A stretch of DNA of 64,000 nucleotides from Hadesarchaea archaeon (GCA_030619825.1 JAUXAS010000002.1:3363-67362); one strand, 5' to 3'. Counted from the stretch's first letter, positions 1,181-55,529 are shown. Notes: a model not told the origin generated them from the letters alone. Numbers and translations: made by a program.

Positions 1181-2041
1181 TTAAAGCGCAGACTTTCCGC
1201 ATCCAATTTTTCCTACTCTCACATCAATAACCACGTGGTCGACGCCTGGGGCATAACGCTTCACCACGCGCTTGCCCAAGATCTCGACTCCCCGCCCAGC
1301 TGCTACTCCCAAAATCCGTTTGATCGGGCGCTCGAAACGCAGCCCCGAAGGGACGCTCTCGTGGTAGTGGATGACGCCCCCGCTGGGTTTGAGCACCTCG
1401 AGCGCTAACGGCAGGTACTGGTGTGTCACGTGTAGGATGCCAAGCACCACCCGATCCGCGACACCCCGAGGAGCAACCGCGGAGCAATCACCCAACAGTG
1501 GTTTTACGACATGCCCGACCCGGTTCAACCGGATGTTCTCGCGCAGGTAACCGTAAGCGATGGGGTTCAGTTCGGTCGCATAAACCCGGCTCGGCCTCGC
1601 GTGTTTCGCGATGGGGATGCTGAACTGCCCGATACCCGCAAACAAATCGACGATGACCTCGCCGGGCTCCACGAGCTTCGGCAGTCTCGCGCGCTCGTAA
1701 AGATTTCCCGGTGAGAACATCACCCGCGCGACATCGAGCTTGAACCAACAGCCCCCCTCGCTGTGAACGGTCTCCGTCGACGGGTCGCCTGCGATGACCC
1801 TCAGCCTCGGCTCGCGGTGCCTCCCCGCAATCGCGCCCTCTCGGAGCGCGACCGTGTGGACATTTTTTAGTTCGAGCAACGCATGCGCGATGTCCGGTGT
1901 CCTGTGAATAAGCTCGGGCGGCAGGGAGACAATTACGACATGCCCCACCCGGTCAAAACCCGCGGGTAAAAGCTCAAGTTCCTCACTCGTTAATTGATTC
2001 CCGAGGGCTGCGCGCAGGTAACCCATAGAGGGCACTTTCAA
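1181..2041 (-). CDS. trm5: tRNA (guanine37-N1)-methyltransferase Trm5 / Taw22 family (Met-10+ like)
   Basis: 286 aa. KLDVARVMFSPGNLYERARL, SAM motif VIVDLFAGIGQFSIPIAK and YATELNP are characteristic of Trm5/TYW2. Confidence 0.8.
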   Translation of the reverse strand: MKVPSMGYLRAALGNQLTSEELELLPAGFDRVGHVVIVSLPPELIHRTPDIAHALLELKNVHTVALREGAIAGRHREPRLRVIAGDPSTETVHSEGGCWFKLDVARVMFSPGNLYERARLPKLVEPGEVIVDLFAGIGQFSIPIAKHARPSRVYATELNPIAYGYLRENIRLNRVGHVVKPLLGDCSAVAPRGVADRVVLGILHVTHQYLPLALEVLKPSGGVIHYHESVPSGLRFERPIKRILGVAAGRGVEILGKRVVKRYAPGVDHVVIDVRVGKIGCGKSAL

Positions 2042-3477
2042 TGCTTGGCTCGTTTTCGTCTGGCCCTAGGCTTGACTACACCTATCACTTCCAAAAACCT
2101 TCGTCCAACCTTGCGGTCGATTTCAGCCTTAAGGGCCCTTTTTGAAACCCTACCGAAAGCCCTTAGCAGAATTGTCGCTCCCGCCATCCGCGCATGTCCA
2201 CCCGCCGTGCCAATCGGGAGGAATGCCTGTTTGAGCACTTGTCCCAAGTACAGCGACACATCGTTTGTCCGAGCCGAAGCGTAGACAGCATCACCGCAAA
2301 TTCCGTAGACGAACGCGGTCATCACCCCCTCACGCTTCAGTAGAAAGTCCGCGGTCAGAGCAATTAGGTCGCGGTCCTTGACTTCACCCACGTAGGTTAT
2401 TAGGTATCCTCCCTTGAGTTTGCTCCCCTTGATGGCTCGCGCGAGCACGTCGAGGGCCTCGGGGGAAACCGCGGGAGACTGGATTCTCCCAACCAGATCG
2501 AGATCAGCCAGCTTCATGAGGTGCTCGAACGCGTCGAAGTCGGTGGGAGTTGCCCCTCGCGTGAAGTTCTGGGTGTCGGTGAGAATCCCGATCACGAGCG
2601 CAGCTGCAGTTGCCCTATCGACCTCGACCATGGCGTACCTAAGATAATTCGTTAAAAGAGTCGATGCAGATCCCACCTTCGTGATATCCTGATACCTTGC
2701 TCCTACTTCGCTGGAGGGCACGGTGTGATGATCAATCACTATCGTAGGCAGAATTTCCTTTGGTAGGGCGCAGTTGGCGTGGGTCGCAACATCAACAAGC
2801 GCGAAAGCCCTATATCTGTTGAAATTGACATACTTTGCTCGTTTAAGGTCTAACTCAAGCAAGTTGACGAGGGCTCGGTTTTGCGGGTGCCCGATGTCCC
2901 CATCATAGATGATGTCGGCGTCAATCCCGAACGCCTTTGCGTAACGTTTCAGCGCCACACCGCTCGCGATCCCGTCTGGGTCGGGGTTCGTTTGGAGCAC
3001 AATCGCCATTCGCCCTCCGCTGTATTCTTGGAGCAGCGCGCGCAGGCGCTTCTCCTTAGCCATTCCCTTCAGCTCCTCAAACCTACTGAGAGCGAAGTTC
3101 GCGAGAATCTGGGATGATGGTATGGCATCGCTGGCGCCGAGTCGCTTCGCCTCCACCGTCTCCGCCTCGTCCAGAACTCGAGTGACGACTACGGGGTCTA
3201 TCTTCAGCTCCGTCCTCAAGCGATTGATCGTCCCCAGCGCCTGCTCGGTAGCGCGGAAATCTGGAACCATGAGAAGTACGACCTCCGCTCGCGAGATTCC
3301 GGCGTCTTTGAGCACCTTGGACAGACAAAAGTCGCCCATGAAAGTGCTAAAGCCCATCTTTGTGAGCGGTTCGATTTTTTTATCGTCCTTATCGACCACC
3401 ACTAGCTCCACGCCACGCTCCTTGAGCCTGCTCGCCACCGAAAACCCGACATCACCGCAGCCGAGCACGAGGTACAT
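2038..3477 (-). CDS. TrkA-N (NAD-binding) domain fused to a DHH/DHHA1 phosphoesterase
   Basis: N-terminus MYLVLGCGDVGFSVASRL is a Rossmann GxGxxG motif. DPDGIASG, VIDHH and GGHARMAG are DHH/DHHA1 motifs. Start chosen at the MYLVLG methionine. Confidence 0.8.
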   Translation of the reverse strand: MYLVLGCGDVGFSVASRLKERGVELVVVDKDDKKIEPLTKMGFSTFMGDFCLSKVLKDAGISRAEVVLLMVPDFRATEQALGTINRLRTELKIDPVVVTRVLDEAETVEAKRLGASDAIPSSQILANFALSRFEELKGMAKEKRLRALLQEYSGGRMAIVLQTNPDPDGIASGVALKRYAKAFGIDADIIYDGDIGHPQNRALVNLLELDLKRAKYVNFNRYRAFALVDVATHANCALPKEILPTIVIDHHTVPSSEVGARYQDITKVGSASTLLTNYLRYAMVEVDRATAAALVIGILTDTQNFTRGATPTDFDAFEHLMKLADLDLVGRIQSPAVSPEALDVLARAIKGSKLKGGYLITYVGEVKDRDLIALTADFLLKREGVMTAFVYGICGDAVYASARTNDVSLYLGQVLKQAFLPIGTAGGHARMAGATILLRAFGRVSKRALKAEIDRKVGRRFLEVIGVVKPRARRKRAKH

Positions 3478-5805: not shown

Positions 5806-5996
5806 CTTCTCTGTGCGGCTTTAAACTTTTAGGGCTCCGCCTGAACGGCTTAATTTTTTGGCCAACGCTTTTTTTACCTAAATTTCCTGATTTTTTTCTA
5901 AATTTCTATAAAATACGTCGAAAAACTCAAAAACGAAAAATTTTTAACGATGAATGATGAAAATAAAACAATTTTTGGAGGCTGATAGGGGAGGGG

Positions 5997-34754: not shown

Positions 34755-36311
34755 CTAAACCATCCTCCAGGCGTGAAGCCACTCGAGATCGTTGTTGAAC
34801 AAGTCCCGAATATCCTCGATCCCAAGCCTAATCATGGCCAAGCGCGAGAAACCAATCCCCCATGCCAAGACTGGGTAGCGAATGCCGAGCGGGCGAAGCA
34901 ACTCAGGTCTGAACATGCCGGCGCCCAAAACCTCAAGCCACTCGCCCTTCTCGGGAAAGTACACATCGGCCTCGACCGATGGTTCAGTGTAGGGGAAGTA
35001 GCCCGGCCTGAACCTCACCTTAGGGAGTCCCAGCTTGACCATGACCTGCTTCAGGTACCCCAGCATGTCCCGCAGCGTTAGCTTCGGGTCCATCACGATG
35101 CCCTCGGCCTGATAGAATTCGGCGAGGTGCTTGTAGTCAATTTTCTCGTGGCGATAAACGCGATTGATGCAGAAAATCTTGACGGGGGGCTCTGGGTGTG
35201 AGGCGAGGTATCGTACGGTTGCGGCAGTCGTCTGCGAGCACAGCACGGGTCTTCGGCTTACCTCTATGTTGAACTTGTAGCCCCAACCCGTCGACCCGGC
35301 GACACCCCGTTCGTGCGCGGCGGCAACTCGTCTGACCAACGCAGGTGAAGGGAGTTTAGTCCGCTCCGGCTTCGATAGCGAAAGGCTATCGTGAATTTCG
35401 CGCGCGGGGTGATCCTGAGCTTGGAAGAGAGCATCGAAATTCCAGAACTCAGATTCGACAAAGTTACTCCTGATCTCGACGAAACCCATCTCGAGCAAGA
35501 TCTCGCGGAGCTCGTCGATGACCTGCTGCTGGGGGTGAACCTTTCCCGGGTGGACCGGGGCTCCCGGAGCTACCACGTCATAACGTCTGAGTCTGACCTC
35601 CCGCCAACGCCCGCTCACGAGCAACTCGTGGGTTAGTTCGCTCACCTCCTCAACCAGCTCGACGCCGAGCGCGAGGGCTTGATTCCCGAACTCTGTCAGC
35701 TTCAGCTCCCGCCGAGCTTCCTCTTCGGTCTTCACAAGCTTGCGCTCGACCAGCGTGTTGAGAGCTCCTCTCAGGTCGGCTGGAATCTCATCGACACGAT
35801 GCACGCGTGACGCTAATTGCTCGAGCAGCGCCTCATCTGCGAACTTCTGTGAAATCGCCGTTCCGCCCTGCTCGGTAATGGTTAGAACAGTTTTACCTTG
35901 CCGCTTTTGAAATTCTGCCCAGCCCTTGCGCGTGAGCCACGCTAGGGCTATTTGTACCAGTTTCCCCTTGAGGGCTGCGCGGGTAGCTACTTCATACACG
36001 AGTTCTGGACCACCGCTGGCGAGCGCAACCAGCATGCGTCGCTCCGGCAGGCCCTCGCGCGCGTACTCCAAACCTTCCTGGGTGAGACCCGCCCTTGAGA
36101 ACTTTTCTTCACGCATTCCGGCCAAACCATGTTGGGTGAGGGAAAGTGCCGCCCGCATCACCGTTGCTTGGTCGATCTCCGCCCGCTGGGTGATGTCCGT
36201 GACTCCCGCCCTACCGCCGAGCTGCTGGAGGGTAAGTAGGACTTTTTTCTCGTGAGGGGTCAGGCCATCAATGATCGCACGGATATCCAAGGCTTTCAAC
36301 CCCAGAAACAC
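34755..36311 (-). CDS. pheS: Phenylalanine--tRNA ligase alpha subunit (archaeal type)
   Basis: N-terminal wHTH repeats, class II motifs HPAREIHDS, FCINRVYRHE, GAGMFRPE. Confidence 0.92.
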   Translation of the reverse strand: MFLGLKALDIRAIIDGLTPHEKKVLLTLQQLGGRAGVTDITQRAEIDQATVMRAALSLTQHGLAGMREEKFSRAGLTQEGLEYAREGLPERRMLVALASGGPELVYEVATRAALKGKLVQIALAWLTRKGWAEFQKRQGKTVLTITEQGGTAISQKFADEALLEQLASRVHRVDEIPADLRGALNTLVERKLVKTEEEARRELKLTEFGNQALALGVELVEEVSELTHELLVSGRWREVRLRRYDVVAPGAPVHPGKVHPQQQVIDELREILLEMGFVEIRSNFVESEFWNFDALFQAQDHPAREIHDSLSLSKPERTKLPSPALVRRVAAAHERGVAGSTGWGYKFNIEVSRRPVLCSQTTAATVRYLASHPEPPVKIFCINRVYRHEKIDYKHLAEFYQAEGIVMDPKLTLRDMLGYLKQVMVKLGLPKVRFRPGYFPYTEPSVEADVYFPEKGEWLEVLGAGMFRPELLRPLGIRYPVLAWGIGFSRLAMIRLGIEDIRDLFNNDLEWLHAWRMV

Positions 36312-36456
36312 AAGGTGAGAGAGAGTTATAAAATCCGCTGAAGGAAACCCGCTTTAAAAGTGGGATGAAAGCGGTGCCGAACCTTGCTCGGTGAGGCCGG
36401 TTTGGTGGCTCAAAATGAACTGGATGAAGCTGAGATTAAAGGGTTGCGAGTAAAAA

Positions 36457-36882
36457 CTAAATCTTCAACCTTTTCAGCAACTTCCACGTTTGGATTATCT
36501 CGGTATCCCCGACCCGCTTCAGGGAAAGAATCCATTTATCGCCGGTGACCAAGTAATCGGCCCCACTCACGGCCGCTGCTGCCAAAATTGGAACATCCGC
36601 CTCATCGCTAATCAGCTTAGCATATCGCTTTTCAGAGCTTTTGTATGCGCTCTTGGATATTTTCTCATGTTTCACCAAGCGCAAAAACAGCGGGAAGAGG
36701 ACAGCGTGTTTTGGAAACTTTCTCTCGAGCACCGCGTTCGCTTCGTCGATTACGTCGGCGCTCAACACCAGCCCTAATTTTCCATCGATGATCGCATCCA
36801 GCAATTTTCTCTCGTTCCCGGCAAAACCCATCCCAGACACTAGGATATTGGTGTCTAAGAAAACCCTCGGCTTCTTGATCAT
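36457..36882 (-). CDS. vapC: PIN-domain toxin (VapC-like)
   Basis: VFLDTNILVS...SDEADVPILAAA...YLVTGDK are PIN acidic motifs. 4-nt overlap with the upstream AbrB gene. Confidence 0.8.
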   Translation of the reverse strand: MIKKPRVFLDTNILVSGMGFAGNERKLLDAIIDGKLGLVLSADVIDEANAVLERKFPKHAVLFPLFLRLVKHEKISKSAYKSSEKRYAKLISDEADVPILAAAAVSGADYLVTGDKWILSLKRVGDTEIIQTWKLLKRLKI

Positions 36883-37130
36883 CTCTTGGTCCGCCTGATT
36901 TCTTGGATGGCCCGATTCAATTCTCTCCTCGTGAGACCGATCTCCTTTGCGGCACGCTGAAACACGTTCAGGATTTCCTTGGGGTCGACACCGATCCGCT
37001 TCATCAAAATTAGACCCCCTGCTTCAGTGACGTAGAGGTAATCGTCCTCGCTGATGTTCAGGTCATCCCGTATTCCCGCGGGTAGGGTGAGCTGGCCTTT
37101 CGAGGTGACTTTTACCACAGCCTCCACCAT
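36879..37130 (-). CDS. vapB: AbrB/SpoVT-type antitoxin (VapB-like)
   Basis: VKVTSKGQLTLPAGIRDDLNISEDDYLYVTEAGGLILMK is a canonical AbrB swapped-hairpin motif. Confidence 0.8.
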   Translation of the reverse strand: MVEAVVKVTSKGQLTLPAGIRDDLNISEDDYLYVTEAGGLILMKRIGVDPKEILNVFQRAAKEIGLTRRELNRAIQEIRRTKR

Positions 37131-37290
37131 CTTACCACCGTTTAAAATGTAAGAATTCCTTACTTATAAAACTTTGGACCTTGGGGCAACCCACTTGATG
37201 GAGCCAGTTTAATGGCTCAAATTGATAAACCATAAATTGAAAGAATACAAACCAGATAACTGGCTATTACCGGGGCGATTCCCAAGAGGC

Positions 37291-37446
37291 ATATAACTAC
37301 AAGAACTGCCCAGGCGATTTTTGAGCAGGATTGTAAAAATGGTGGAATTCTGAAAGACGTGAGTATTCACTCATTAAGACATAGTTTCGCCACGCATCTT
37401 TTAGAAAATGGAGTGGATTTGAGGTATATCCAAGAGTTATTGGGGA
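37291..37446 (+). pseudogene. C-terminal fragment of a tyrosine recombinase/integrase
   Basis: ...[47 protein letters not shown] is the box II region. The catalytic Tyr segment is missing and no N-terminal part is present. Confidence 0.6.
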
Positions 37447-37478
37447 AAACGTTATATTCAATCACTCTGGCGTGCTCA

Positions 37479-38246
37479 TCATTTTTTTCTTAGAAGAACC
37501 ATGTTATCAGAAAATTTTTTAGCTTTTTCTAGAGGTTTGTCTAAATGCCAAATATTACAATTTCCCTTCCACCACCCTAAGAATTCAAATTTTCCATTTA
37601 ACTTTACAAGTGTTTTAAATTCTTGTGGGTAAATAAATTTTAAATCTCTTTTATGAACAAATTTCATTTCCTTTCCATAATCATTTACTTCATGTGTTAA
37701 TATTTCGGTCCCCATTTGGGTTATTGGATTTTTATAAATCCATTCAAAAGTTGTTTTTACTTTTATTCCTCCTTTTTCTCTTGTCCAGGATTGTTTTCCG
37801 GATTTTGAATTTATGCCATGATTTTGTATAAAATAAAGTCCGCCTTTATTCAGAGATTTTGCAACAGAGTCAAGATGTGAAAGAAACTCTTCATTAGATT
37901 GCACATCTAAGGAGCCCATCATTATAAAAGCAAAATCTGCTTTCTTTTTTAACCTGAAATTTGTTAAATCCGCCCTAATGGTTTCTATTTTTACTCCTTC
38001 TTCCTTCGCTTTCTTTTTCAGATACCCCAACATTCTAAAATTTAAATCTAGTCCAATAGCTTCATATCCTCTTTTTGCAATTTCTCGAAGTTGTAAACTT
38101 GGCCCACATGCTATATCTAAAAATCTTTTAACTTTTCTTTTGCTGAATTTCTTAATTATTTTTTCAAAATTGTCAACTTGCTGTTTGGCGTTTACAAAAA
38201 TAAATGCTATATCATAGTATTCTGGTTTATCATACGGACTTATCAT
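37479..38246 (-). CDS. Class I SAM-dependent methyltransferase (in an AT-rich islet)
   Basis: [28 protein letters not shown] is SAM motif I. Composition is strikingly AT-rich relative to the neighbours. Confidence 0.75.
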
Positions 38247-38510
38247 GATATAAAATAATCCTCAATTACTATTTAAAAGATTTGAAAAAATTGCGTGCCC
38301 TCGTGACTTCTCCGTCGTTCAGCTTACGCCTGCGCTACTCGACCTTCGCTATCGCTCAGGGAATATAACACGGGCTATACGGCTCGCTAACGCTCTGCCC
38401 AACTCGTTTCTAACGAAACGACTTCGTATAGCCTGAATACGTTATACGCAATTCCGCCCCGAAGCCTTATGAAAAAAGAAATTTAAGATCAAATGGAAAG
38501 GTAACTAAAA

Positions 38511-38984
38511 ATGTCGAACGAAAATGAATGGAATTTAGTTGCTCCCTGCGGGCTTTATTGTAAAGAATGCACAGCTTTTCTTAATGAGAAATGTGGGGGT
38601 TGCAGGTCTAATGAGGGCTTAAGCAAAGAGTATAGAAAATATTGCGAAATCTATCATTGTTCAAGCAGTAAAAACTTAAAGATATGTTTAGATTGTAAGG
38701 AATTCCCCTGTAGATTCTTTGATTTCTTTAAGACTGAAAAATTAGAGGAAAGCTCTTGGTTTTTAGACATCTGGAGCAACATGAAGCAAATTAAGGAAGT
38801 AGGCCTAACAAATTTCCTGAGGAAGAAAATAGATTGGTTAAGGAAGAGAAAAGAATGTGCTAAGAAAAAAGGGATTAAATATTGCAATGAATGTAAGCAA
38901 TGGCCATGTGAATTTTTGAAAAGACCTGTCCTTGTTCCAGCAAATTTGAAAGAATTTAAAGAATTCATGAGGAAAGGTAGGTAA
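38511..38984 (+). CDS. Cys-rich DUF3795-like protein
   Basis: APCGLYCKECTAF...CGGCRS...C.IYHC...CLDCKEFPC and a second YCNECKQWPC cluster. Confidence 0.6.
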   Translation: MSNENEWNLVAPCGLYCKECTAFLNEKCGGCRSNEGLSKEYRKYCEIYHCSSSKNLKICLDCKEFPCRFFDFFKTEKLEESSWFLDIWSNMKQIKEVGLTNFLRKKIDWLRKRKECAKKKGIKYCNECKQWPCEFLKRPVLVPANLKEFKEFMRKGR

Positions 38985-39134
38985 AAATGAGAGCGATCAG
39001 TAGCTTTGGACGAGACTCTTCCGTTGTTCGCCCCTATCGGGAGCGTATAACAGTGGCTAAAAGGCTTCGCTACGCTTCGCCCAAATTTGCTACGCAAACT
39101 TCTTTTACCCGCAAAACGTTAGGAGTATTTTTGC

Positions 39135-40124
39135 TCATCTGAAATGCTCATAACCGCGATCTGGCAACGCTCGTGTCTTTCCCTTCACTTGAATAAAAAC
39201 TCCCTTACCCTTGGCCACACGTCCAATCGTAGTTGCTGTGGCGCCCACGCGTTTGAGCGCCCACCGAACTTTTTCCCACCCTCTCGGGCGAACCGTAAAG
39301 AGTAATTCAAAATCCTCCCCACCGAAGAGCACGAAATCGTCAACACCAAAACCATACCGGGTGACAAATTTTCTGACGAGTGGATGTTCAGGCACATTAG
39401 CCCGATCGATGACGAGCTTGACTTTGCTCTCTCGAGCCAGTTGCCAAAGGTTCGCCGCGAGCCCATCGGTGACATCTATCGCCGATGTAACAAAGCCACT
39501 CCGCGCCAGAACCATGCCCTCCCGCACGCGCGCTCTCGGTTCAAGCTGGGCTCTGACCAGCGCACGGTAGCCCTTGGCCGGATGTCTCTTGAGCAGGAGC
39601 CTCAAACCCGCCGCGGCCGTCCCCAGCCTGCCCGTCACCGCGATGAGGTCGCCCGCCCTCGCCCCTGAGCGAGTCAGGAGCTCCCGCCTGCGGGCCATGC
39701 CGAAGGCCGCCCCGGATATGACCACCTCCTCGCTCTCGTCCAGGTCCCCACCGACAACGTGGGTGTCGTATTCGCGTGCAGCTACATCCATGCCCCGCAC
39801 GAGCCGCTCGACGAATTTCACCTCGAGCTTCCGCGGCAAACCCACCGAGAAAATCAGTCCTAGGGGCTCGGCCCCCATCGCCGCCAGGTCGCTGAGGTTG
39901 ACTACGACCGCCCTGCGGGCCATCTGCTCGGGTGTCGTGCGAGGTGGGAAATGTCTGCTTGCGACGAGCATATCGGTGGTCGCGACCAGACAACTGCCAT
40001 CGATGTCAATCGCCGCAGCATCGTCACCTATTCCAACCCTAACCCGGGGCCCTCGCCTACAGATTTTACGCGCCAACTCCACCAAGGCTCTTTCGCCGGC
40101 CTCGCTCAGCTTCATCGACTCCAC
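39135..40124 (-). CDS. thiL: Thiamine-monophosphate kinase
   Basis: GIGDDAAAIDIDGSCLVATTDMLVASRHFP and AMGAEPLGLIFSVGLP, an AIR-synthase-like fold. Confidence 0.85.
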   Translation of the reverse strand: MESMKLSEAGERALVELARKICRRGPRVRVGIGDDAAAIDIDGSCLVATTDMLVASRHFPPRTTPEQMARRAVVVNLSDLAAMGAEPLGLIFSVGLPRKLEVKFVERLVRGMDVAAREYDTHVVGGDLDESEEVVISGAAFGMARRRELLTRSGARAGDLIAVTGRLGTAAAGLRLLLKRHPAKGYRALVRAQLEPRARVREGMVLARSGFVTSAIDVTDGLAANLWQLARESKVKLVIDRANVPEHPLVRKFVTRYGFGVDDFVLFGGEDFELLFTVRPRGWEKVRWALKRVGATATTIGRVAKGKGVFIQVKGKTRALPDRGYEHFR

Positions 40125-41042: not shown

Positions 41043-42263
41043 TTGCCTAAAAAGTTGCAAGGTGATGACTTGCGAGTAGATGTCGCCGTGGTTGGCGGCG
41101 GTCCTGCGGGATGCTTCGTCAGCGGGGTGCTTGCCAAACAAGGTTTTGAAGTTGCAATCATCGAGGAGCATGCTGAAGTGGGCAACCCGGCCTGCTGCGC
41201 GGGCGTGGTGGGGGTAGGCGGGCTTCGAGAGCTGAAAATCAAGCCGGGGAAATGGGTGCTCGGCAAGCTTCGCCGCGCCGTTTTCTACCCCCCATCGAAC
41301 GAGCCCGTCGAGATAACTCGCGGCAAGGTGGAGGCATTTGTAATCGACCGCGCCGCCTTCGACCGGGAGATGGCGAGAAAAGCCGTGAAGGCTGGGGCCA
41401 CCCTGCTCCTTGGGACAAGGTGCGTGGGACTCAAACTTGGGCGCGAGCCAGTGGTGAAGCTCAAGGGTGGACGTGAAACCGAAGTCGGGGCACGCTTGGT
41501 AATCGGCGCAGACGGCCCGGCTTCGATCATCGCGCGGGAGGCAGGCCTGCTTAAAAACGTGCGCTACCTCAAATGCTCCCAACTCGAAACTATCGCTGAA
41601 GTCCGAGCTGACGCCACCGAGCTTTACTTCGGCAGCTCGTTCGCCCCTGGCTTCTTCGCTTGGTTGACCCCGGCCGGCGACCTCTGTCGCGTGGGGCTCG
41701 GCACCTTCCGGGGCGATGCCCTCAGGAATCTCCTATCTTTTGTAGGGACTCACCCGACAGCATCCACCAAGGTCCAATCCAGTAAAATTCTCAGCCTCTG
41801 CGCTGGGCTCATCCCCGAGCCGCTGACGAGGAAGATCTACACCGACCGCGTGATACTTGTAGGCGACGCCGCCGGTCACGTCAAGCCCCTCACAGGCGGC
41901 GGCATCTACGTCGGGCTTTCTTGCTCCCAACTCGCTGCCGAGGTCGCGGCGGATGCCCTTGGGAGCGAGCCCACCGCCAAGAAGCTTCGCGCGTACGAAC
42001 GGGCCGTGATGAAGAGATTTGGCCGCGAGTTTGAGCTGGGAATTCGTGCACGCAGGGTTTTTGAGCAAATGACCGATGAGGACCTAAATTCAATATTCGA
42101 ACTTCTGAAGAGAGAAGACGTTCAAGCGCTGGTACTAGAAAACTTCGACTTCGACCACCACGAAAAACTACTCCGAGCCCTTCTAATCAAGGCCCCACGA
42201 TTGCTACCCTCGCTCGAGCTGAAAAGGATCCTGAAATACTCACGCTACCTACTGAAACCCTAA
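41043..42263 (+). CDS. Geranylgeranyl reductase family flavoprotein (digeranylgeranylglycerophospholipid reductase-like)
   Basis: FAD motif DVAVVGGGPAGCFVSGVLAKQG, GADGPASIIAR and VGDAAGHVKPLTGGGIY. Non-ATG (TTG) start, so the start is uncertain. Confidence 0.85.
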   Translation: MPKKLQGDDLRVDVAVVGGGPAGCFVSGVLAKQGFEVAIIEEHAEVGNPACCAGVVGVGGLRELKIKPGKWVLGKLRRAVFYPPSNEPVEITRGKVEAFVIDRAAFDREMARKAVKAGATLLLGTRCVGLKLGREPVVKLKGGRETEVGARLVIGADGPASIIAREAGLLKNVRYLKCSQLETIAEVRADATELYFGSSFAPGFFAWLTPAGDLCRVGLGTFRGDALRNLLSFVGTHPTASTKVQSSKILSLCAGLIPEPLTRKIYTDRVILVGDAAGHVKPLTGGGIYVGLSCSQLAAEVAADALGSEPTAKKLRAYERAVMKRFGREFELGIRARRVFEQMTDEDLNSIFELLKREDVQALVLENFDFDHHEKLLRALLIKAPRLLPSLELKRILKYSRYLLKP

Positions 42264-42267
42264 AAAA

Positions 42268-42499
42268 TGGCGGGGATTTAGACCCTTCCACTACTCCCTC
42301 GACGAGCTTGCGAATCTCGACCACTCCGCTCACTCATCGCTTTTTCACGTTGGGGCCTTTATCCCACAGTCGTTGCCTTGCCTCGCTCCTCCACGAGACT
42401 TATCCGCGTCCTCCCCCGGTTTTTCGCCCGAGTTTTTACGCGGCTCTCCGTTGCCCTTAAGCTCCGGTTCGGCCTCCTCTGCAGACTTCTATCCCCGCC
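42268..42499 (-). ncRNA. Structured RNA candidate, copy 1 (class unassigned)
   Basis: 5' GGCGGGGA pairs with 3' UCCCCGCC, then A. A T6 run follows immediately after the 3' end. TATA at -23 to -29. Helices covary with copy 2 (see findings). Confidence 0.6.
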
Positions 42500-42521
42500 G
42501 CCTGCATTTAAAGCGTCCCGC

Positions 42522-42528
42522 TATTTAA
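42522..42528 (-). promoter_or_regulatory. TATA box for structured RNA copy 1
   Basis: TTAAATA on the minus strand, 23-29 nt upstream of the first G of the terminal helix. Confidence 0.5.
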
Positions 42529-42585
42529 GGTTTTTTTCGAAAGTAGAACTATTTCCAACTTAGATATATGGCTAAAATAAAAAAA

Positions 42586-42789
42586 TGGCGGGGTTCGACC
42601 CCTCGACTACTCTTCAGCGCAACTTTCGCTGCGCCGCTTTTCATCTCGGGGCCTTTTTCCCACAGCTCTTGCCTCCGCACCCACCACCGGGCGCCTTAGC
42701 CAATCCCTTCCCAAGTACTCCTGGTTTCTGAGTGGCTCCCCGTCGCCCTTGAGCGCCGGTTTGGCTTTCGCTGCGGGCTTCCCCCCGCC
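42586..42789 (-). ncRNA. Structured RNA candidate, copy 2 (class unassigned)
   Basis: 5' GGCGGGG pairs with 3' CCCCGCC, then A, followed by T7. TATA at -24 to -30. 9-bp GAAA-capped hairpin at 42615-42636. Confidence 0.6.
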
Positions 42790-42812
42790 AAAATTCATAT
42801 TCCTTATCAACC

Positions 42813-42819
42813 TAATAAA
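42813..42819. promoter_or_regulatory. TATA box shared by structured RNA copy 2 (minus) and the DRG GTPase gene (plus)
   Basis: TAATAAA/TTTATTA lies 24-30 nt from the RNA 5' end (42789) and about 20 nt from ATG 42835. Confidence 0.45.
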
Positions 42820-42834
42820 GATTTGGCGTCAAAA

Positions 42835-44007
42835 ATGCCAGCAAACCTCCGCCCAGAATACTTCAAGGCTGAAGAGCGATACCTCCAAGCGCGAACGCTG
42901 GAGGAGCGAATCCTTGCAACCGAGGAGCTCATCCGCCTCGCCCCGAAGCATAAGGGGACCGAGAAGCTCCTGAGGGTACTCAAGCGGCGCCTGGCCAAGC
43001 TTCGCCAAGAGCTACGGGTGAAGCAGGGGCGCCGGGTCGGGAGGAGTGGGCCGAGCTTCGCTATCAAAAAGGAAGGCGCCGCCCAAATAGCACTCGTTGG
43101 GGCACCGAACTCAGGGAAATCGACGCTGCTACACCAACTCACGGCCGCCCGTCCAAAAATCGACAATTATCTATTCACCACCCGGCGGCCAGTGCCGGGA
43201 ATGATGCAATTCGAGGATGTTCAAATACAGTTGGTTGAGGTCCCCGCGGTGATCGAGGGCTCGAGCCTCGGCAAGGGGCTTGGTGCACAGCCGCTCAGCG
43301 TCGCCCGAAACGCGGACGCCATCGTCCTAGTGGTCGATGCCTCGACGGAGCCGATCGAGCAGGTCCGAATTCTGATCAACGAACTCGAGGCAGCAGGCAT
43401 CAGGCTCAACCAGCAGATCCCCAAGCTCAGTATCCAGCGCAAGGTCACGGGAGGGATTGAAGTTCGGGGAGCGGGTGCGTTCGATGGCAGCGAAGTGGAG
43501 CTCAAACGCATCCTGCAAGAGCATCGCATCCACAACGCGCTCTTGACCATCGACGAACCGGTAACGGCCGATGACCTCGAGGAATTGCTCGATGAATCCT
43601 TGGTTTATCGCCGTGCCTTCATCCTCCTCACAAAATGTGAATCTTCGGGCGCCGCAGACAAACTCAAGCTGCTGGAGCGCGAGTTCAGGGGGCGCTTTCG
43701 GGCGATTGCCACTCAAGGGGCTGGGGAGCGGCTGAAGCAAGCGATCTTCGAAAAACTCGACCTCATCCGCGTTTACACCAAGCGCTCCGACGAGGAGCCA
43801 GCCAAACGCCCGCTGGTCCTGCCTAAGGGCTCGACGATCTTCGACATCGCAAGGGCGGTGCACAAAGATTTCGCGAGAGAGCTGGAGTTTGCCCGTGTGT
43901 GGGGGTCGACGCGCTTTCCGGGACAACAGGTGCCTCGGGAGTACGCGCTTCAGGACAAAGACATCGTCGAACTTCACGCATCAAAAATCTACTCGCCGCG
44001 CAAGTAG
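42835..44007 (+). CDS. Developmentally regulated GTP-binding protein (DRG/Obg-like GTPase with TGS domain)
   Basis: G1 LVGAPNSGKSTLL, YLFTT, C-terminal TGS-like KDIVELH. ATG 42835 preferred over TTG 42823. Confidence 0.85.
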   Translation: MPANLRPEYFKAEERYLQARTLEERILATEELIRLAPKHKGTEKLLRVLKRRLAKLRQELRVKQGRRVGRSGPSFAIKKEGAAQIALVGAPNSGKSTLLHQLTAARPKIDNYLFTTRRPVPGMMQFEDVQIQLVEVPAVIEGSSLGKGLGAQPLSVARNADAIVLVVDASTEPIEQVRILINELEAAGIRLNQQIPKLSIQRKVTGGIEVRGAGAFDGSEVELKRILQEHRIHNALLTIDEPVTADDLEELLDESLVYRRAFILLTKCESSGAADKLKLLEREFRGRFRAIATQGAGERLKQAIFEKLDLIRVYTKRSDEEPAKRPLVLPKGSTIFDIARAVHKDFARELEFARVWGSTRFPGQQVPREYALQDKDIVELHASKIYSPRK

Positions 44008-49592: not shown

Positions 49593-50447
49593 ATGTCCAT
49601 AAACGTTGTAAAAGCCGATGGGCACGTGGAGGGATTTCAACCAGAAAAGATAACACGAACCTTGCTGAAAGCTGGGGCAAGTAGGGAAGTTTCTGAGCGG
49701 ATTATCAAAGAAATTAAGACTAGGGTCTATGATGGTATCACCACCAAGAAAATCTTGAAGCTGGTAAAGTCCCTGCTCAGAAAGGAAGAGGCGAGAGCGG
49801 CGATGCGCTACGATCTCAAGGGGGCGATGATGCGCCTTGGTCCAGCAGGCTTCCCCTTTGAAACTTTCGTGGCTAATGTCTTAGAGCACTACGGGTATAA
49901 GACGAGGTTGAGAAGTATCCTTCAAGGCAGGTGCGTAAAACATGAAGTCGACATCATCGCTGAGGAAGCTAGCGAAGAAAGAATCAAAAGATACCTCATC
50001 GAATGCAAGTATCGTAATACCTCAGGCACCTTTATCGATCTCAAAGATGCTCTTTACACGTATGCGCGTTTTTTGGACCTAAACGAGGCAAGTGAGTTGG
50101 GTAAGGGAACAAAGTTCGACGGGGTTTGGCTTGCCTGCAACACCCGGGCCTCTTATGCTGCAAGACGCTATGCTGACTGCAAGGGGATGAGGTTACTATC
50201 CTGGCTGCACCCCAAAGGTCAAGGTTTAGAGCGGCTTGTGGAGGAAAAGAAGTTATATCCAGTGACGATCCTGCCCTCGGTCGACAGAAAGACCTTGGAA
50301 AACCTGTCCAGAGCCGGTTTAATGCTCGTCAAGGACCTAATAATCCGTGATTTGAACACCCTTCGAGAAAAATCAGGGGTGAGCAAGGAGAAACTTAGGA
50401 GGATAATAAAGGAAGCTAAGGACTTGATGTCTGAAGCAGCCAGTTGA
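49593..50447 (+). CDS. ATP-cone domain fused to a PD-(D/E)xK (Mrr-like) nuclease core and a C-terminal helix-hairpin-helix
   Basis: VVKADGHVEGFQPEKITRTLLKAG...TKKILKLV is an ATP-cone. HEVDIIAEE...YLIECKYRN is D...ExK. LSRAGLMLVKDLI...L..KSGVSKEKLRRI is HhH-like. Confidence 0.65.
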   Translation: MSINVVKADGHVEGFQPEKITRTLLKAGASREVSERIIKEIKTRVYDGITTKKILKLVKSLLRKEEARAAMRYDLKGAMMRLGPAGFPFETFVANVLEHYGYKTRLRSILQGRCVKHEVDIIAEEASEERIKRYLIECKYRNTSGTFIDLKDALYTYARFLDLNEASELGKGTKFDGVWLACNTRASYAARRYADCKGMRLLSWLHPKGQGLERLVEEKKLYPVTILPSVDRKTLENLSRAGLMLVKDLIIRDLNTLREKSGVSKEKLRRIIKEAKDLMSEAAS

Positions 50448-50691
50448 GGGTTCTGAAGATTTTTTTGAGAGGGCCCCGAACGACCGAGCCTGTGAAACCC
50501 TTCACACGATTCGACTCCCGATCGCGCGCAAAGGGCTTTTTTATGGAGTGCGAGCGTCATGGGGAGAACTGTTTTCCTCGAGAGAGTGCCAATTTGTCAA
50601 CTCTCTATCCCTCCTCCAAGCTAAAGGAGGAAGACTGCTACAAGACTTTCGGCAAATCTTAACGATACCCCCTTTTTTACTGTTTCCACTT

Positions 50692-50745
50692 TGGTGCGGG
50701 GGAGTGGATTTAAGCACCAATTTACTGGTAAAAATCCTGCAAAGA
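50692..50745 (-). repeat. Decayed copy (d) of the tRNA-Leu 3' half (att-like)
   Basis: TGGTGCGGGGGAGTGGATTTAAGCACCAATTTACTGGTAAAAATCCTG. The first 13 nt are identical to the tRNA 3' end and the rest is AT-shifted. Confidence 0.65.
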
Positions 50746-50915
50746 TGATTTAATCGATCACTGTAATAAACTAAACTATTTGAATGAGCGAGGCCGAGAA
50801 TTTTGTTTATCCACGCACGTTGTTGTTTAGACCTCTTCTCAGCTCCACGCCCACGTTATAGACATCCTTGAGAAACTGACTGTGTGAGCAATAGAGATCG
50901 GGGGATAAAACTACC

Positions 50916-52817
50916 TTAAAACGCCAGTCTTTGAAAGATTTTAGGCCCAAGAGTTGAAATGATTTCTACGCAGGTAGCGAGGGTGAACTTAATCATGTTC
51001 AGTGTCTCGCGTATATCGCCGACAGTTAATGGTTTAAAGACGTGGTACATATAATTCCGAACAGAACCTTTTATCAATTTGAAAGGATAATTATTGCTAC
51101 CCTTCAATTGATCGAAATCGAAATTGAGGTCAAAATTTATTGTTGCTTTGTCTTGTTTTCCGGATATGATTTTTATATATTCTACGGTGTTTCTTGTGGT
51201 TTCCATGATGTAACTGGTAAGCGGTCTGTTTTTGTATCTTATAGTTAATTGGATTGTTTGTGGACCCAATATGGCAAGGAATCTTGTCATATCTACGACT
51301 TGATGCATTCTTATTTTCCTTGTGCATTCTTCAACGCGGGGATCTGCCATTGATTCTATAAAGACTTTAAACTGAGTAGCCATATTTTTGGAAGATACTT
51401 GTTGAGAAAAGCCTGCTTTAGCCAAGAATACCAACTGAACGATTCTGTCCATTATAAACTTAGACAGCGACGTTTTTCTAGCGTCTCTTTTCTGAGTGAC
51501 TGCAAGCCAGTCAAAGAAGGTGTCCGGTGTCCAAAACTTTCCTATACAGTAAGTTCTCAGTTCCTCAATTTGTTGTTTGCTTATTTTCGGTGATTTAAAT
51601 ACAGAATTATTTTCATCGTATTTGGTCCAATCGCGTTCGAAGATTAAACTCTCTCTTTCTAAAGACTCATAGAATTCGGTCCCGGGAAATGGTGTTGCGA
51701 TACCGAACGCCGCGCTCATCAAGCCTATTTTCTTAGCGTATGTTGGAAATTGCTTTATCTCTTCTTCGCTCTGATCTGGTAAACTTATTACGAAAGTGCC
51801 TGCAGCGACGCCACCGGAATCTCGAATTACCTGTATGGCCTTTTTTTGCATTTCAGTGTTTATTCCTTTGTGCGTTATATTTAGATCTTTTAAATTCGGA
51901 CTTTCGATTCCCATACAAAAATGAATAATGTTATTGTCACACATTTTTTTAACGACTTCAGGGCGTCTAGCCATTGAATCTACCCGAACCATGGCATGAA
52001 ATACTATGTCAAAATTTAATTCGCTTAATAAATCGCAAAAACGGTCAACTCTCTTGGCATCACCCATAAAATTAGGGTCTCCTATGAGGATACATAGAGG
52101 TTTCCCTTTGTGTATCCCATTGTATATTTGATCGATTTCTTCTATTACGTTTTCCGGAGAACGATAACGTTGGCGACTTCTGCTCATACTCGGTTCGCAG
52201 CAAAAAGTGCAACGCCCCCAACACCCACGAGACGTGTGAATCTCATCTACCTCCCTATCCCTTATAAGAGGACTAGTGTATTTGTGTCGTCTAAGGTGTC
52301 GTGCAGGGAAGGGAAGCGAACCCAGGTCTCCAATCAATGGACGATCGGGATTATGAATCACCTTATTGTTCTCTTTGTAAGAAATACCTAGAACACCCTC
52401 AGGAGAACCCCTTTGGACCAGTTCCTTCATCGTTAATTCCCCTTCACCACGGACTACCATATCAACTTGTTTATGTGAAAGCAATTCATCTGGAATAGCA
52501 GTCGGGTGATAGCCCCCCAACACTGTTACAATCCCCCTCTTTTTGGCAATCGAAGCGATACGCAAACCACTTTTATGTTCGGTTGCTGACATTGAGATTC
52601 CCACTAAATCGGGACGAAATAAATCTAGGAAATACAGAAACGAATGGCGTTTTTCGTGTGACATGTCAAGTACATTTACCTCATCAACGATATCTTCAAT
52701 CGACGCTGCGACATATTCTAAGCCTATTGGAATCAAAGCCAACGCAAACCCTAATCCCGTTCTTCCTGCTGGTTTCACCAATAAAATTCTTCTAAAAGCC
52801 ATTCTTATCATATCCAA
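50916..52817 (-). CDS. B12-binding domain radical SAM protein with a long C-terminal extension
   Basis: B12-binding region LVGISMSATEHKSGLRIASIAKKRGIVTVLGGYHPT and radical SAM cluster SRGCWGRCTFCCEP. The gene is AT-rich. Confidence 0.85.
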   Translation of the reverse strand: MDMIRMAFRRILLVKPAGRTGLGFALALIPIGLEYVAASIEDIVDEVNVLDMSHEKRHSFLYFLDLFRPDLVGISMSATEHKSGLRIASIAKKRGIVTVLGGYHPTAIPDELLSHKQVDMVVRGEGELTMKELVQRGSPEGVLGISYKENNKVIHNPDRPLIGDLGSLPFPARHLRRHKYTSPLIRDREVDEIHTSRGCWGRCTFCCEPSMSRSRQRYRSPENVIEEIDQIYNGIHKGKPLCILIGDPNFMGDAKRVDRFCDLLSELNFDIVFHAMVRVDSMARRPEVVKKMCDNNIIHFCMGIESPNLKDLNITHKGINTEMQKKAIQVIRDSGGVAAGTFVISLPDQSEEEIKQFPTYAKKIGLMSAAFGIATPFPGTEFYESLERESLIFERDWTKYDENNSVFKSPKISKQQIEELRTYCIGKFWTPDTFFDWLAVTQKRDARKTSLSKFIMDRIVQLVFLAKAGFSQQVSSKNMATQFKVFIESMADPRVEECTRKIRMHQVVDMTRFLAILGPQTIQLTIRYKNRPLTSYIMETTRNTVEYIKIISGKQDKATINFDLNFDFDQLKGSNNYPFKLIKGSVRNYMYHVFKPLTVGDIRETLNMIKFTLATCVEIISTLGPKIFQRLAF

Positions 52818-52892
52818 TAATTGTGTTCCACCATGTATTTCAATTGTCTATAATAGCTTTCACGATTTCAGAACACACTATGAATTAATACT

Positions 52893-53037
52893 GTACTTGC
52901 AAATCCCGGATCGCTACGTCAACGCCATCTGCGGCCGCGTTCCAGCGAGCGTCCTAGCGCGGCACTACACGGACTACTCGTTCGAAAGACTAAGGAAATC
53001 TGTGAAAAGGCTAATCTGGGGGTGTTGGATGGCTAAA
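52893..53037 (+). pseudogene. C-terminal fragment of an archaeal tyrosine integrase, with a frameshift
   Basis: IPDRYVNAICGRVPASVLARHYTDYSFERLRK, then after a +1 shift ICEKANLGVLDG-stop. Only about the last 45 codons are present. The fragment is GC-rich inside AT-rich flanks. Confidence 0.6.
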
Positions 53038-53346
53038 GTCAAAATGCGGCAAATCAAATCACCAAAAATATGAAAATTGAACTCGCGCTTTTTGAGATAG
53101 CAAGTGGGGATCTTGAAGCTGCAAGGGACTTGAAAATAGTGCAGAAAGAGGATATAAAATACTGAAAAAATTCCGAGAATTCTTTAGAAAATTGAAGTTG
53201 AGGACCAAACTGTGCGGACAAATGTATGTACACGCCGCTACCGCAAGCGCATAAATTTGACCCTTCCCGCCCGATTTGTGGCAACAGCGCGTGAAAAAAA
53301 TACCTTTGTCCCGTTTCTGCGAAATGGCGATTGATGAACATTTGAA

Positions 53347-53386
53347 GTGCGGGGGGATAGGTTTAAGCTACCGTTTAAATCTACCG
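53347..53386 (-). repeat. Decayed copy (c) of the tRNA-Leu 3' half
   Basis: GTGCGGGGGGATAGGTTTAAGCTACCGTTTAAATCTACCG. Confidence 0.55.
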
Positions 53387-53444
53387 AAATGAAATTTTTA
53401 TGCCTAAAAACTGCCTAAATCTTGCTCCATTGGCTATTGAAGAG

Positions 53445-53487
53445 TGGTGCGGGGGAAGAGATACCGACTACCGTTTAATTCTACCGT
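53445..53487 (-). repeat. Decayed copy (b) of the tRNA-Leu 3' half
   Basis: TGGTGCGGGGGAAGAGATACCGACTACCGTTTAATTCTACCG. Confidence 0.6.
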
Positions 53488-53529
53488 ATTTAAATGGCAA
53501 TGTTTGCGCGACCGGCTTTTGAGTTTTAT

Positions 53530-53572
53530 CCTGTGGTGCGGAGGCAGTGCTTGTGGTTTAAAATTATTTTAT
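53530..53572 (-). repeat. Short copy (a) of the tRNA-Leu 3' end plus flank
   Basis: CCTGTGGTGCGG is identical to 55438-55449 (includes 4 nt beyond the tRNA 3' end), followed by ..GTGGTTTAAAA. Confidence 0.45.
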
Positions 53573-53585
53573 CCTCGTCTATCTT

Positions 53586-55175
53586 CTACTCCCAAGCGAG
53601 CATGTCCTCAGAATGCGATTCTTTGATGGACTCCAGCAATATCCTCTTCATTTTCTTCTTCGTGTGGTAGTCGTAAACGACCTTAACCTTCTCAAGCGTG
53701 AAAGGGTTCAGACCCGTCCAGTACATACACGATGAGACCGTCATGGGTGTGGGCGTGAAAAGCTGGAAATGCTCTATGTTCCGCAGCCGCGCTAACTTTT
53801 CACCCAACAATTTAACCTGTCCCTCATCGTCGCCAGGATGGCCTATCATGATGTAGTACCTCAGTGTCTGCTTCTTACCCTTGTTCAAGGAGTTGAAGAG
53901 ATCCACGAACTTGTCGAACCTCGAGTTGTCCTTGTTCATGAGCCTCAGGACCTCGCCCGAGAAGTGCTCCGGGGCTATCTTCAGAGTGCCCGAGATGTGG
54001 TGCTCTGATAACTCCTTTATGTACTCCTCGCTGTCCAGCGCCAGATCGTACCTTATGCCGCTCCTAACGAAAATCTTCTTCACGCCAGGAATCGCCCTAG
54101 CCTTCCTTAACAACGATATCAACCTCCTGTGGCTCCTGTCCAGATCGGTGCATCGCCAGCAACTTTCGCCGCACCTCTTCTCACAGTCCATGCCATACAT
54201 GTTCGCCGATGGGCCGCCGAAGTCGTCTATGTAGCCCTTAAAATCCGGATGCTTCGTCAGGCCCTTTATCTCCTTTAGTATGTTTGCCTCAGACCTCGAG
54301 ATTATCTCGTCACCCTGATGGAGCGCGATGGAGCAGAAATTGCACCCGCCTATGCACCCCCGGTGGGTGACGACGGAGAACTTGGCCATCTTCAACGGCG
54401 AGTGCGGGTGCAGCTTCCTCGTGTAGCCCAGGGAATATATCCAATCCAAGTCCTCGGTTGTGTAATCCGGGTATCTATATTGCAACACGTAGTTGTTTTT
54501 GTACTCCTGGGCCTGGTTCTTGTAGTTCGAGAAGGCCACCTGCATCTGGCAGAACTTTACCTTGTCCTCTTTCACCTCTTTGAAAGACGGCAGCATCCCG
54601 AAATTGGCGTCGACCGTCCGGGATAGGATGCACGTGCCCCGTATTCCCCGCAGGTCCTTCCTGTCCCTCAATCTGTCGGCAATCTCGATGGCCTGCTTCT
54701 CGCCGTTACCGTACACCAGGATGTCGGCCCTCGAGTCGAGAAGGATGCTGCACCTGACGTTGTTGTCCCAGTAATCGTAGTGCGCGAACCGCCTCAGGGA
54801 GGCCTCTATGCCGCCTATGACGATCGTGCTCGACTTGAAATGCCGCTTTACCCCGTTGCAGTATACGATCACGGCCTTGTCCGGCATCTTCGTGACGGAG
54901 CTGTGCCTGTCGCCGACCCGCTTCTTCTTAAGCGGCGTGTAGTTGTTCACCATGCTGTCCACGGAACCCGAGGTGACGCAGAAGCAGAGCTTCGGCGCGC
55001 CGAGCCTGGTGAAGTCCTCCTCGGTCTCGGGCTGCTCGATTATCCCCACCTTGTAACCCTTGGCGTCTAGGACCCGGGCTATGACTCCCGCGGGTGAGAA
55101 GGGGTGGTCGTCGTAGTAGTCCGCCGTGAGGAGCACTATGTCGAAACCCGCCCCAGTTTTGGCTATCATCGTCAT
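53586..55175 (-). CDS. YgiQ-family radical SAM protein (UPF0313)
   Basis: N-terminal FDIVLLTADYYDDHPFSPAGVIARVL, cluster HRGCIGGCNFCSI and the C-terminal YgiQ pattern. Confidence 0.85.
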   Translation of the reverse strand: MTMIAKTGAGFDIVLLTADYYDDHPFSPAGVIARVLDAKGYKVGIIEQPETEEDFTRLGAPKLCFCVTSGSVDSMVNNYTPLKKKRVGDRHSSVTKMPDKAVIVYCNGVKRHFKSSTIVIGGIEASLRRFAHYDYWDNNVRCSILLDSRADILVYGNGEKQAIEIADRLRDRKDLRGIRGTCILSRTVDANFGMLPSFKEVKEDKVKFCQMQVAFSNYKNQAQEYKNNYVLQYRYPDYTTEDLDWIYSLGYTRKLHPHSPLKMAKFSVVTHRGCIGGCNFCSIALHQGDEIISRSEANILKEIKGLTKHPDFKGYIDDFGGPSANMYGMDCEKRCGESCWRCTDLDRSHRRLISLLRKARAIPGVKKIFVRSGIRYDLALDSEEYIKELSEHHISGTLKIAPEHFSGEVLRLMNKDNSRFDKFVDLFNSLNKGKKQTLRYYIMIGHPGDDEGQVKLLGEKLARLRNIEHFQLFTPTPMTVSSCMYWTGLNPFTLEKVKVVYDYHTKKKMKRILLESIKESHSEDMLAWE

Positions 55176-55441: not shown

Positions 55442-55529
55442 TGGTGCGGGGGAGGGGATTCGAACCCCCGAACCCCTACGGGACCAGACCCTGAATCTGG
55501 CACCTTTGACCTGACTTGGCTACCCCCGC
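55442..55529 (-). tRNA. tRNA-Leu (anticodon CAG), class II with long variable arm, CCA encoded
   Basis: GCGGGGGTAGCCAAGTCAGGTCAAAGGTGCCAGATTCAGGGTCTGGTCCCGTAGGGGTTCGGGGGTTCGAATCCCCTCCCCCGCACCA. 7-bp acceptor stem, anticodon stem CCAGA/TCTGG with loop TTCAGGG, T-loop TTCGAAT. Confidence 0.9.

Follow-up and report, generated by a model that had tools for sequence, protein, structure and literature searches.

Within a stretch of 64,000 nucleotides from a Hadesarchaea archaeon (GCA_030619825.1, JAUXAS010000002.1:3363-67362; hereafter the window), the 560-nt gap between a GGR-like oxidoreductase gene and a DRG/OBG-type GTPase gene holds two copies of a structured element on the minus strand. On the evidence of covariation and conserved transcription signals, we hold with high confidence that these copies represent a real family of structured, independently transcribed RNAs. 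The region is predicted to comprise two separate genes, each with an archaeal promoter and an oligo-T terminator, encoding paralogs of approximately 205 nt (copy A) and 232 nt (copy B). A wider explanation, in which such RNAs would serve as scaffolds of a ribonucleoprotein (RNP), is probably the best available overall, and we advance it with correspondingly more reserve.

The coordinates, lengths and ends proposed for both copies in an initial annotation of this DNA are all correct on reading the sequence, and comparison with Pfam finds the flanking GGR and DRG genes to be as described there. Copy A extends from GGCGGGG to CCCCGCC-A, and copy B from GGCGGGGAU to AUCCCCGCC-A; the two align from end to end with 66% identity, and an nhmmer search of the 64-kb window returns these copies and no others (E 1e-53 and 1e-67). 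The minimum free energy of copy A is -100.8 kcal/mol (shuffle mean -74; z = -6.2) and that of copy B -96.3 kcal/mol (shuffle mean -72; z = -5.6), with none of 200 dinucleotide shuffles equally stable in either case. At this site the RNA strand opposes both neighboring genes, and the only overlap is that of the copy B T-run with the GGR stop codon.

Signals for independent transcription recur throughout the family. An A-rich stretch resembling a transcription factor B recognition element (BRE) at approximately -36/-31, and a TATA-like box at -30/-23, are common to 49 members, while a run of at least three T residues, one nucleotide past the terminal helix P1, is present in 45 of these 49; the TATA heptamers and T6-T7 runs noted initially in the two copies follow this layout. 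In every A-type ortholog, and also in the family consensus, the TATA element of copy A recurs at an equal distance, and the promoter sequence of copy B (aaaaatCCTTAAATA) is kept in its orthologs. Such signals are hallmarks of independent archaeal stable-RNA genes, and expression is predicted on this basis. Only 16 nt separate the copy A TATA box from the start codon of DRG, which is on the opposite strand; the DRG promoter must accordingly overlap the promoter or the 5' end of copy A, and positions 42813-42837 must constitute a compact divergent control region.

Covariation among homologs supports a conserved fold. From an alignment of 51 distinct sequences (A2), RNAalifold predicts 56 pairs, 40 of which exhibit compensatory double changes; completion of the terminal helix brings the structure to 60 pairs in 11 helices. 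Pairing is retained in 97.2% of alignment cells, compared with 84% in column shuffles and 34-46% where partners are slid by 1-3 columns, and double changes affect 41 of the 60 pairs (390 cells, vs. 92 in shuffles). None of 500 shuffles matched the observed value on any measure, almost all of the top pairs by mutual information (average product-corrected) are predicted pairs, and the eight A-type sequences alone yield the same architecture. The compensatory changes first proposed from the two window copies are borne out by strong covariation, specific to the pairs as drawn, and the helices drawn at that stage find their place in the consensus: the terminal helix is a 9-bp P1, which covaries across homologs, CCCGCAG/CUGUGGG is P2, AGCCA/UGGCU vs. 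CCGCG/CGCGG is P5a, CCAG/UUGG vs. UCGG/CCGG is P5b, and GCGCCC/GGGUGC vs. GUCUCG/CGAGGC is P6, all covarying among the 51 homologs, while the 9-bp GAAA-capped hairpin is P9 of copy A. The many G-U pairs establish the minus strand as the functional, transcribed one.

In the consensus fold, the G+C-rich helix P1 joins the 5' and 3' ends and is followed by a three-way junction from which two arms extend. Its pairs vary in concert: G-C at pair 7-230 in 42 sequences gives way to A-U in eight, pair 9-228 occurs as UA, CG, GC and UG, and pair 4-233 as GC, AU and CG. Arm 1 is built from P2 and P3 around three hairpins, namely P4, with a UNCG/UAAG loop, P5, which contains a 5x5 all-purine internal loop where one A.G pair covaries to G.A, and P6; compensatory changes are found in 22 of the 32 pairs of this arm (helices 2-7), and 96-100% of cells are paired. 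An AAAAA linker connects it to arm 2, where P7-P8 are followed by an internal loop and P9, and where GAA on the 5' strand and AGUA on the 3' strand both adjoin P8. Read from its sequence signature, the AGUA/GAA loop fits an S-turn of the bulged-G, loop-E type. The tip of arm 2 distinguishes the types, in that A-type members bear a GNRA cap (GAAA in L061; GUAA in L022, L006, and L012; GCAA in L060), and B-type members, together with the C-type members found away from the GGR-DRG site, bear P10 with a nearly invariant 11-nt loop (GUGGUCGAGAU), the core of which (GUGGUCGA) is invariant, and the remainder nearly so, in all 44 B/C sequences. Across the family the helices vary by compensatory change and the unpaired purine-rich stretches are nearly invariant; AACCG, CGGRGANCC, GGGAAAAAG, GAAAA, GAGUA, and GGAAGG are near-invariant in A, B, and C types alike.

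Three covarying column pairs of A2 lie outside this nested structure. Pair 150-197 (CG, UA, UG) would form a pseudoknot within arm 2, and is sterically doubtful; pair 4-17 would fit an alternative hairpin at the 5' end, formed by the 5' strands of P1 and P2; and pair 63-91 exhibits switching between A.G and G.A. Several other elements were considered and rejected. A T-arm-like 3' hairpin is broken by seven sequences with A222/C230 that retain P7 and P1; a kink-turn (K-turn) in the arm-2 loop is contradicted by tandem pairs that read 5'-AG/AG-3' rather than GA/GA, in a loop which fits an S-turn; and a kissing contact between the P10 loop and the joining region J3/2 (UCG with CGA) is lost in the clade of L036, L038, L039, and L045.

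The family is anchored in a syntenic site. The closest named relatives of the window DRG protein belong to Candidatus Hadarchaeum and Hodarchaeaceae (65-69% identity), and metagenomic proteins reach up to 98%. Contigs were fetched for ten DRG relatives, down to 55% DRG identity, and in all ten the gene order AIRS-PTH2-DUF1616-GGR-[gap]-DRG-(TrkA)-uL16-arginase-PPDK is conserved. A hidden Markov model (HMM) built from the two window copies detects a homolog in the GGR-DRG gap of every one of these (10/10), always opposite to GGR and DRG; the search of related genomes suggested in the initial annotation found homologs at this site in each relative examined. Close relatives (DRG 82-93% identical) possess both A and B, more distant ones, including Hadarchaeum, possess B alone at this site, and Hodarchaeaceae and the short-DRG lineages L060 and L061 possess A alone. 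The A-type orthologs (L004, L002, L022, L006, L042, L012, L060, and L061) share the same consensus structure.

An exact pattern, derived from blocks conserved in all copies and scanned over 185,579 species genomes (one per GTDB species), matched 46 loci, of which 41 are in Hadarchaeota metagenome-assembled genomes (MAGs); the other five are bacterial and have no HMM hit, approximately eight chance matches being expected. Six MAGs contain more than one locus, with two or three separate loci in each. Approximately 20 loci lie away from the GGR-DRG site, and we refer to these as C-type; their length is that of B. In at least five of them, polB (family B DNA polymerase) is directly downstream on the same strand, nifU/iscS/dsrE genes are the neighbors in four, and a PHP-domain gene, AMMECR1, and others occur elsewhere. 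The distance from the RNA end to the polB start is 34-115 nt in L036, L038, L047, L049, and L056, and the T-run and A after the RNA could play a double role as the polB TATA box, or there could be read-through. The C-type member at 1843-2073 (+) of L018 is approximately 0.7-0.85 kb from an archaeal signal recognition particle (SRP) RNA and a tRNA (Archaea_SRP and tRNA, 2752-3237, minus strand), in what amounts to a cluster of stable RNAs. This member and another C-type at 2164-2393 of L033, which lie on two contigs of a single MAG (SRP323688_co1_140), have an identical 45-nt upstream sequence and different RNA sequences, which points to recent duplication or to co-binned strain variants.

In a neighbor-joining tree, A-type sequences form a deep, separate clade, and B and C intermingle, in part according to lineage, a pattern indicative of repeated duplication within the family and of an old split between A and B/C. 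By this comparison A and B are old paralog types, and not the products of a recent tandem duplication. In relatives of the window organism (L014, L054, L050, L052, and L001) the A copy is decaying and B is intact in each; as A has decayed while close relatives keep B, the copies may be regarded as partly redundant. The initial annotation had found no open reading frame (ORF) shared by the two copies, and gene callers applied to the homologs likewise yield short, inconsistent ORFs on either strand, which are very probably spurious. Two pattern scans of 2.9 million viral contigs returned zero family hits, and a viral or mobile origin was rejected on this result together with the stable synteny.

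The initial annotation could name no class for these elements, and comparison with known RNAs is in agreement. At gathering score, the 4227 models of Rfam 15 match only a tRNA-Leu in the whole window, and no member of the family across approximately 300 kb of related loci; for six members (the two window copies and four others) searched at E<=10, only unstructured chance hits are returned, such as JPX_1 and RUF6-5 (E 2-3), with just two such hits for the window region, and tRNA prediction over the copies is empty. Literature searches for Hadarchaeota or Hadesarchaea together with non-coding RNA, RNase P or 5S found no paper on non-coding RNAs of this phylum. As no corresponding Rfam family or paper was found, the family is, so far as such comparison can establish, a new class of structured RNA. 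Both window copies display the features by which we propose to define it: the P1-P10 fold, the AACCG..CGGRGANCC hairpin, GGGAAAAAG-P7, the AGUA/GAA loop, the BRE/TATA promoter, and the T-run. The coordinates of these and other features are collected in Table 1.

Table 1. Positions of the RNA genes, their predicted parts and neighboring genes in the window, and of decayed copies and overlapping gene calls at related loci (L-numbers).
Feature	Position	Strand	Remarks
Copy A, A-type RNA gene	42586..42789	-	204 nt including unpaired 3' A; read 42789->42586
Copy A promoter	42813..42826	-	TATA TTTATTA 42819-42813, at -30/-24 from first G; BRE-like stretch upstream
Copy A terminator	42579..42585	-	T7 run directly after CCCCGCC-A
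Copy A arm 2	42597..42653	-	P7, P8, GAAAAG / GAAGAGUA loop, P9; lacks P10 extension
Copy A P9	42636-42615	-	9 bp, GAAA cap
Copy B, B-type RNA gene	42268..42499	-	232 nt; read 42499->42268
Copy B promoter	42522..42537	-	A-rich BRE (aaaaaaCC) and TATA TTAAATA 42528-42522, at -29/-23 from first G
Copy B terminator	42262..42267	-	T6 run; overlaps stop codon of convergent GGR-like gene
Copy B P1, 3' strand AUCCCCGCC	42269..42277	-	pairs with GGCGGGGAU 42499-42491
Copy B arm 1	42363..42485	-	P2 42485-42479 with 42369-42363; P3 42473-42471 with 42377-42375
Copy B arm-1 hairpins	P4 42467-42448; P5 42443-42404; P6 42399-42380	-	
Copy B arm 2	42281..42357	-	P7 42357-42353 with 42285-42281; P8; S-turn-type loop; P9; P10; helices 8-11
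Copy B S-turn-type loop (putative)	42346-42340 and 42299-42292	-	GAAAAAG vs. AGGGAGUA
Copy B P10 loop	42325-42314	-	AGUGGUCGAGAU
FAD-dependent GGR-like oxidoreductase	41043-42263	+	Pfam
DRG/OBG-type GTPase	42835-44007	+	ATG at 42835; Pfam
Decayed A copies	L014 2109-2305; L054 1958-2153		5' strand of terminal helix lost
Decayed A copies	L050 1525-1610; L052 5873-5939; L001 about 5870-5950		fragments only
Hypothetical ORFs over RNA genes	L006 4688-5236; L002 5775-5981; L007 3534-3710; L013 4689-4841	differing	50-182 aa

Elsewhere in the window, G+C content falls to 0.42-0.47 at 36000-40000 and 50000-54000, vs. approximately 0.55-0.59 in the remainder, possibly marking islands of DNA that is foreign or in some other way distinct.

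Could the family be a familiar RNA in disguise? The gene ends, with GGCGGGG...CCCCGCC, one unpaired base and a T-run, are like those of tRNA genes, and GGGAAAAAG(A/G)(C/U)CC weakly recalls the CR-I region of RNase P RNA (GAGGAAAGUCC); nonetheless, we consider a reduced RNase P RNA, an SRP RNA or a tRNA-like molecule extremely improbable. ARAGORN and the Rfam tRNA model match only the tRNA-Leu (CAG) at 55442-55529 (minus strand), the window's sole tRNA, with a long variable arm; the family sequences cannot be drawn with a D, anticodon or T arm, the T-arm-like hairpin being contradicted by the seven sequences mentioned above. The archaeal SRP RNA model (RF01857) gives no family hit, and a canonical SRP RNA (156.8 bits) sits in the Hadarchaeota MAG of L018. 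No RNase P RNA model (types A, M, and T) hits the family, CR-I and CR-V (ACAGAA..GGCUUA) are absent, and the topology differs, in that every supported helix is nested, leaving no P4 pseudoknot, and P2 closes at column 138 rather than near the 3' end. The weak AAAGNCC likeness also fails, as the residue that would correspond to the bulged U of P4 is paired and covarying (pair 145-223). Further, several paralogs per genome are a poor match for a single-copy RNase P or SRP gene. Guide RNAs of the box C/D and H/ACA types were rejected on the lack of RUGAUGA/CUGA in K-turn register and of a terminal ACA, the 3' end being CCCCGCC-N, and snoRNA-type Rfam hits are absent among the six members at E<=10. 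An expanded, derived 5S rRNA, which we judge very improbable, deserves closer attention. Here P1 would be helix I, P2 would be the helix II-III arm with an insertion of approximately 90 nt replacing loop C, and P7-P10 would be the arm of helix V, loop E, and helix IV. The topology does match, with a terminal helix, a three-way junction and a second arm carrying an AGUA/GAA motif of the loop-E type (AGUA on the 3' strand), copy A minus P4-P6 amounts to about 116 nt, and several unlinked copies, nearby translation genes (PheRS, PTH2, DRG, and uL16) and a small genome are compatible with this view. Against it, the loop sequences which we take to be conserved in 5S rRNA (loop A CAUA, loop C CCCAUC.GAAC, and GGGAGUAC...GGGAA) occur nowhere in the family, and its S-turn would be on the opposite strand to that of archaeal and eukaryal 5S loop E. 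The Rfam 5S model (RF00001) has no hit at gathering score or, for the six members, at E<=10, and paralogs sharing a genome have just 66% identity and unequal arm lengths. Canonical 5S was absent from the approximately 300 kb of fetched loci, a sample uninformative on this point, and a regular expression for canonical 5S motifs over 537 kb of loci matched only coding sequence, by chance. The archaeon Halococcus has a 5S rRNA of 231 nt (PMC7812874, PMC7530397), which lends the idea a precedent in size, but the expanded archaeal forms known are confined to Halobacteriales (PMC7812874).

Other alternatives concern what a new RNA might do. The family might be a regulatory sponge, in which the repeated unpaired GGA(A/G)G motifs would titrate either some RNA-binding protein or 16S rRNA through its anti-Shine-Dalgarno end, in the manner of bacterial CsrB/RsmZ. 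Five to seven conserved single-stranded GGA stretches appear in the group consensus, at J1/2, J2/3, the P5 internal loop, the P6 loop, and the arm-2 loop, and several paralogs per genome are common among sponge RNAs; this idea is nevertheless unlikely, given that sponges are usually loose arrays of hairpins whereas the family is a compact multi-helix junction, that it has invariant elements without GGA (e.g., AACCG...CGGGGAGCC and GUGGUCGAGAU), and that purine-rich loops are expected in the family RNA anyway. To our knowledge, moreover, no CsrA-type protein occurs in archaea. Nor do we think it likely that the RNA is self-sufficient, as a new ribozyme or ligand sensor in which the A-rich loops and GNRA cap would shape a compact fold around an active site. 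Its size, junction, A-rich internal loops, GNRA/UNCG caps, and invariant junction nucleotides do recall large ribozymes and orphan bacterial RNAs; conversely, covariation supports no pseudoknot, pair 150-197 being the sole and sterically doubtful candidate, no link to a substrate gene or mobile element was seen, and the B/C-type has a different loop instead of a GNRA cap. That the copies are cis-acting or antisense elements of DRG, GGR or polB, remnants of repeats or mobile elements, or small ORFs, is hardly credible. The promoter of copy A does abut the DRG start, and C-types do precede polB on the same strand at five loci within the 34-115 nt given above; yet the GGR-DRG copies are on the opposite strand to their neighbors without coding overlap, save for the copy B T-run at the GGR stop, they have their own terminators, contexts at other loci are unrelated, and synteny is stable throughout the phylum. 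The lack of viral-contig hits argues against a mobile remnant, and indels that are not multiples of three, along with substitutions that keep pairing rather than codons, argue against small ORFs.

Returning to the RNP scaffold, we envisage the RNA as a stable, abundant, trans-acting molecule, the invariant loops and S-turn of which may be contact sites for a second RNA or for one or several proteins. It would form the scaffold of a housekeeping RNP, most plausibly one involved in translation or RNA processing, and the several gene copies would supply dosage while being partly redundant. The neighbors PheRS, PTH2, DRG, uL16, SRP RNA, and tRNA fit such a role without proving one. Several points weigh against this reading: no conserved neighbor gene or partner hints at function, the contexts of the extra copies being different; paralog identity of 66-77% is unusual for a classical housekeeping RNA; an RNP scaffold, a ribozyme, and a regulatory sponge would fit the present evidence alike; and the apparent restriction to Hadarchaeota rests on a single exact-pattern scan, which is blind to diverged relatives. 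A more ambitious version, which we offer tentatively and regard as possible rather than probable, is that of an extra essential and abundant RNP RNA of Hadarchaeota, not known from any other lineage studied, whether a ribosome-associated 5S-like RNA, a radically rebuilt 5S rRNA, or the RNA component of a novel RNP active in catalysis or processing. Its ancient A and B/C paralogs would have been maintained from a time preceding diversification of the phylum.

Apart from rRNA, tRNA, RNase P RNA, and SRP RNA, archaea are known to possess very few kinds of stand-alone RNA that are both large and highly structured. The present family is an added candidate of approximately 230 nt, phylum-wide and in several copies per genome, with 11 covariation-supported helices and near-invariant single-stranded surfaces. 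It is thereby a strong contender to be a novel ribonucleoprotein or ribozyme, from a subsurface lineage still without a cultured member. In public Hadarchaeota MAGs its genes are unannotated or hidden under spurious ORFs. A covariance model built from A2 would fix this annotation, and would also serve as a marker of the phylum in metatranscriptomes.

Several known systems invite comparison. With 5S rRNA, including the 231-nt Halococcus form, it shares a terminal helix, a three-way junction, two arms, and an AGUA/GAA loop in the second arm, as well as genes that stand alone, each with a promoter and T-run, in several unlinked copies; unlike 5S rRNA, it has a first arm with a three-hairpin junction, an S-turn on the other strand, almost twice the length in all members, paralogs only 66-77% identical, and no similarity at the level of sequence or covariance model. 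SRP RNA (RF01857) and RNase P RNA (RF00373, RF02357) have in common with it paired termini, multi-helix junctions, A-rich joining regions, and an own promoter with oligo-T terminator, but their genes are single-copy, and the family is without SRP helix 8, CR-I/CR-V, and the P4 pseudoknot. The 6S-1/6S-2, Y, and CsrB/RsmZ RNAs likewise present diverged copies on one scaffold, with stable pairing of the 5' and 3' termini and conserved unpaired motifs that are candidate protein-binding sites; the family differs from them in having no rod with a central bubble, no Ro-binding stem, and no hairpin array, and its loci have no partner gene such as rsr or csrA nearby. A further likeness is to the large orphan bacterial RNAs raiA, OLE, ROOL, and GOLLD, classes whose discovery by comparative genomics preceded any known function. 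Like these, the family is independently transcribed (as predicted here), highly structured, covarying and lineage-restricted, with no obvious cis target; unlike them, it is archaeal, is unrelated in sequence and fold (with no Rfam hit), and occurs as multiple paralogs within a genome, with no consistently linked protein gene; OLE, ROOL, and GOLLD are also larger.

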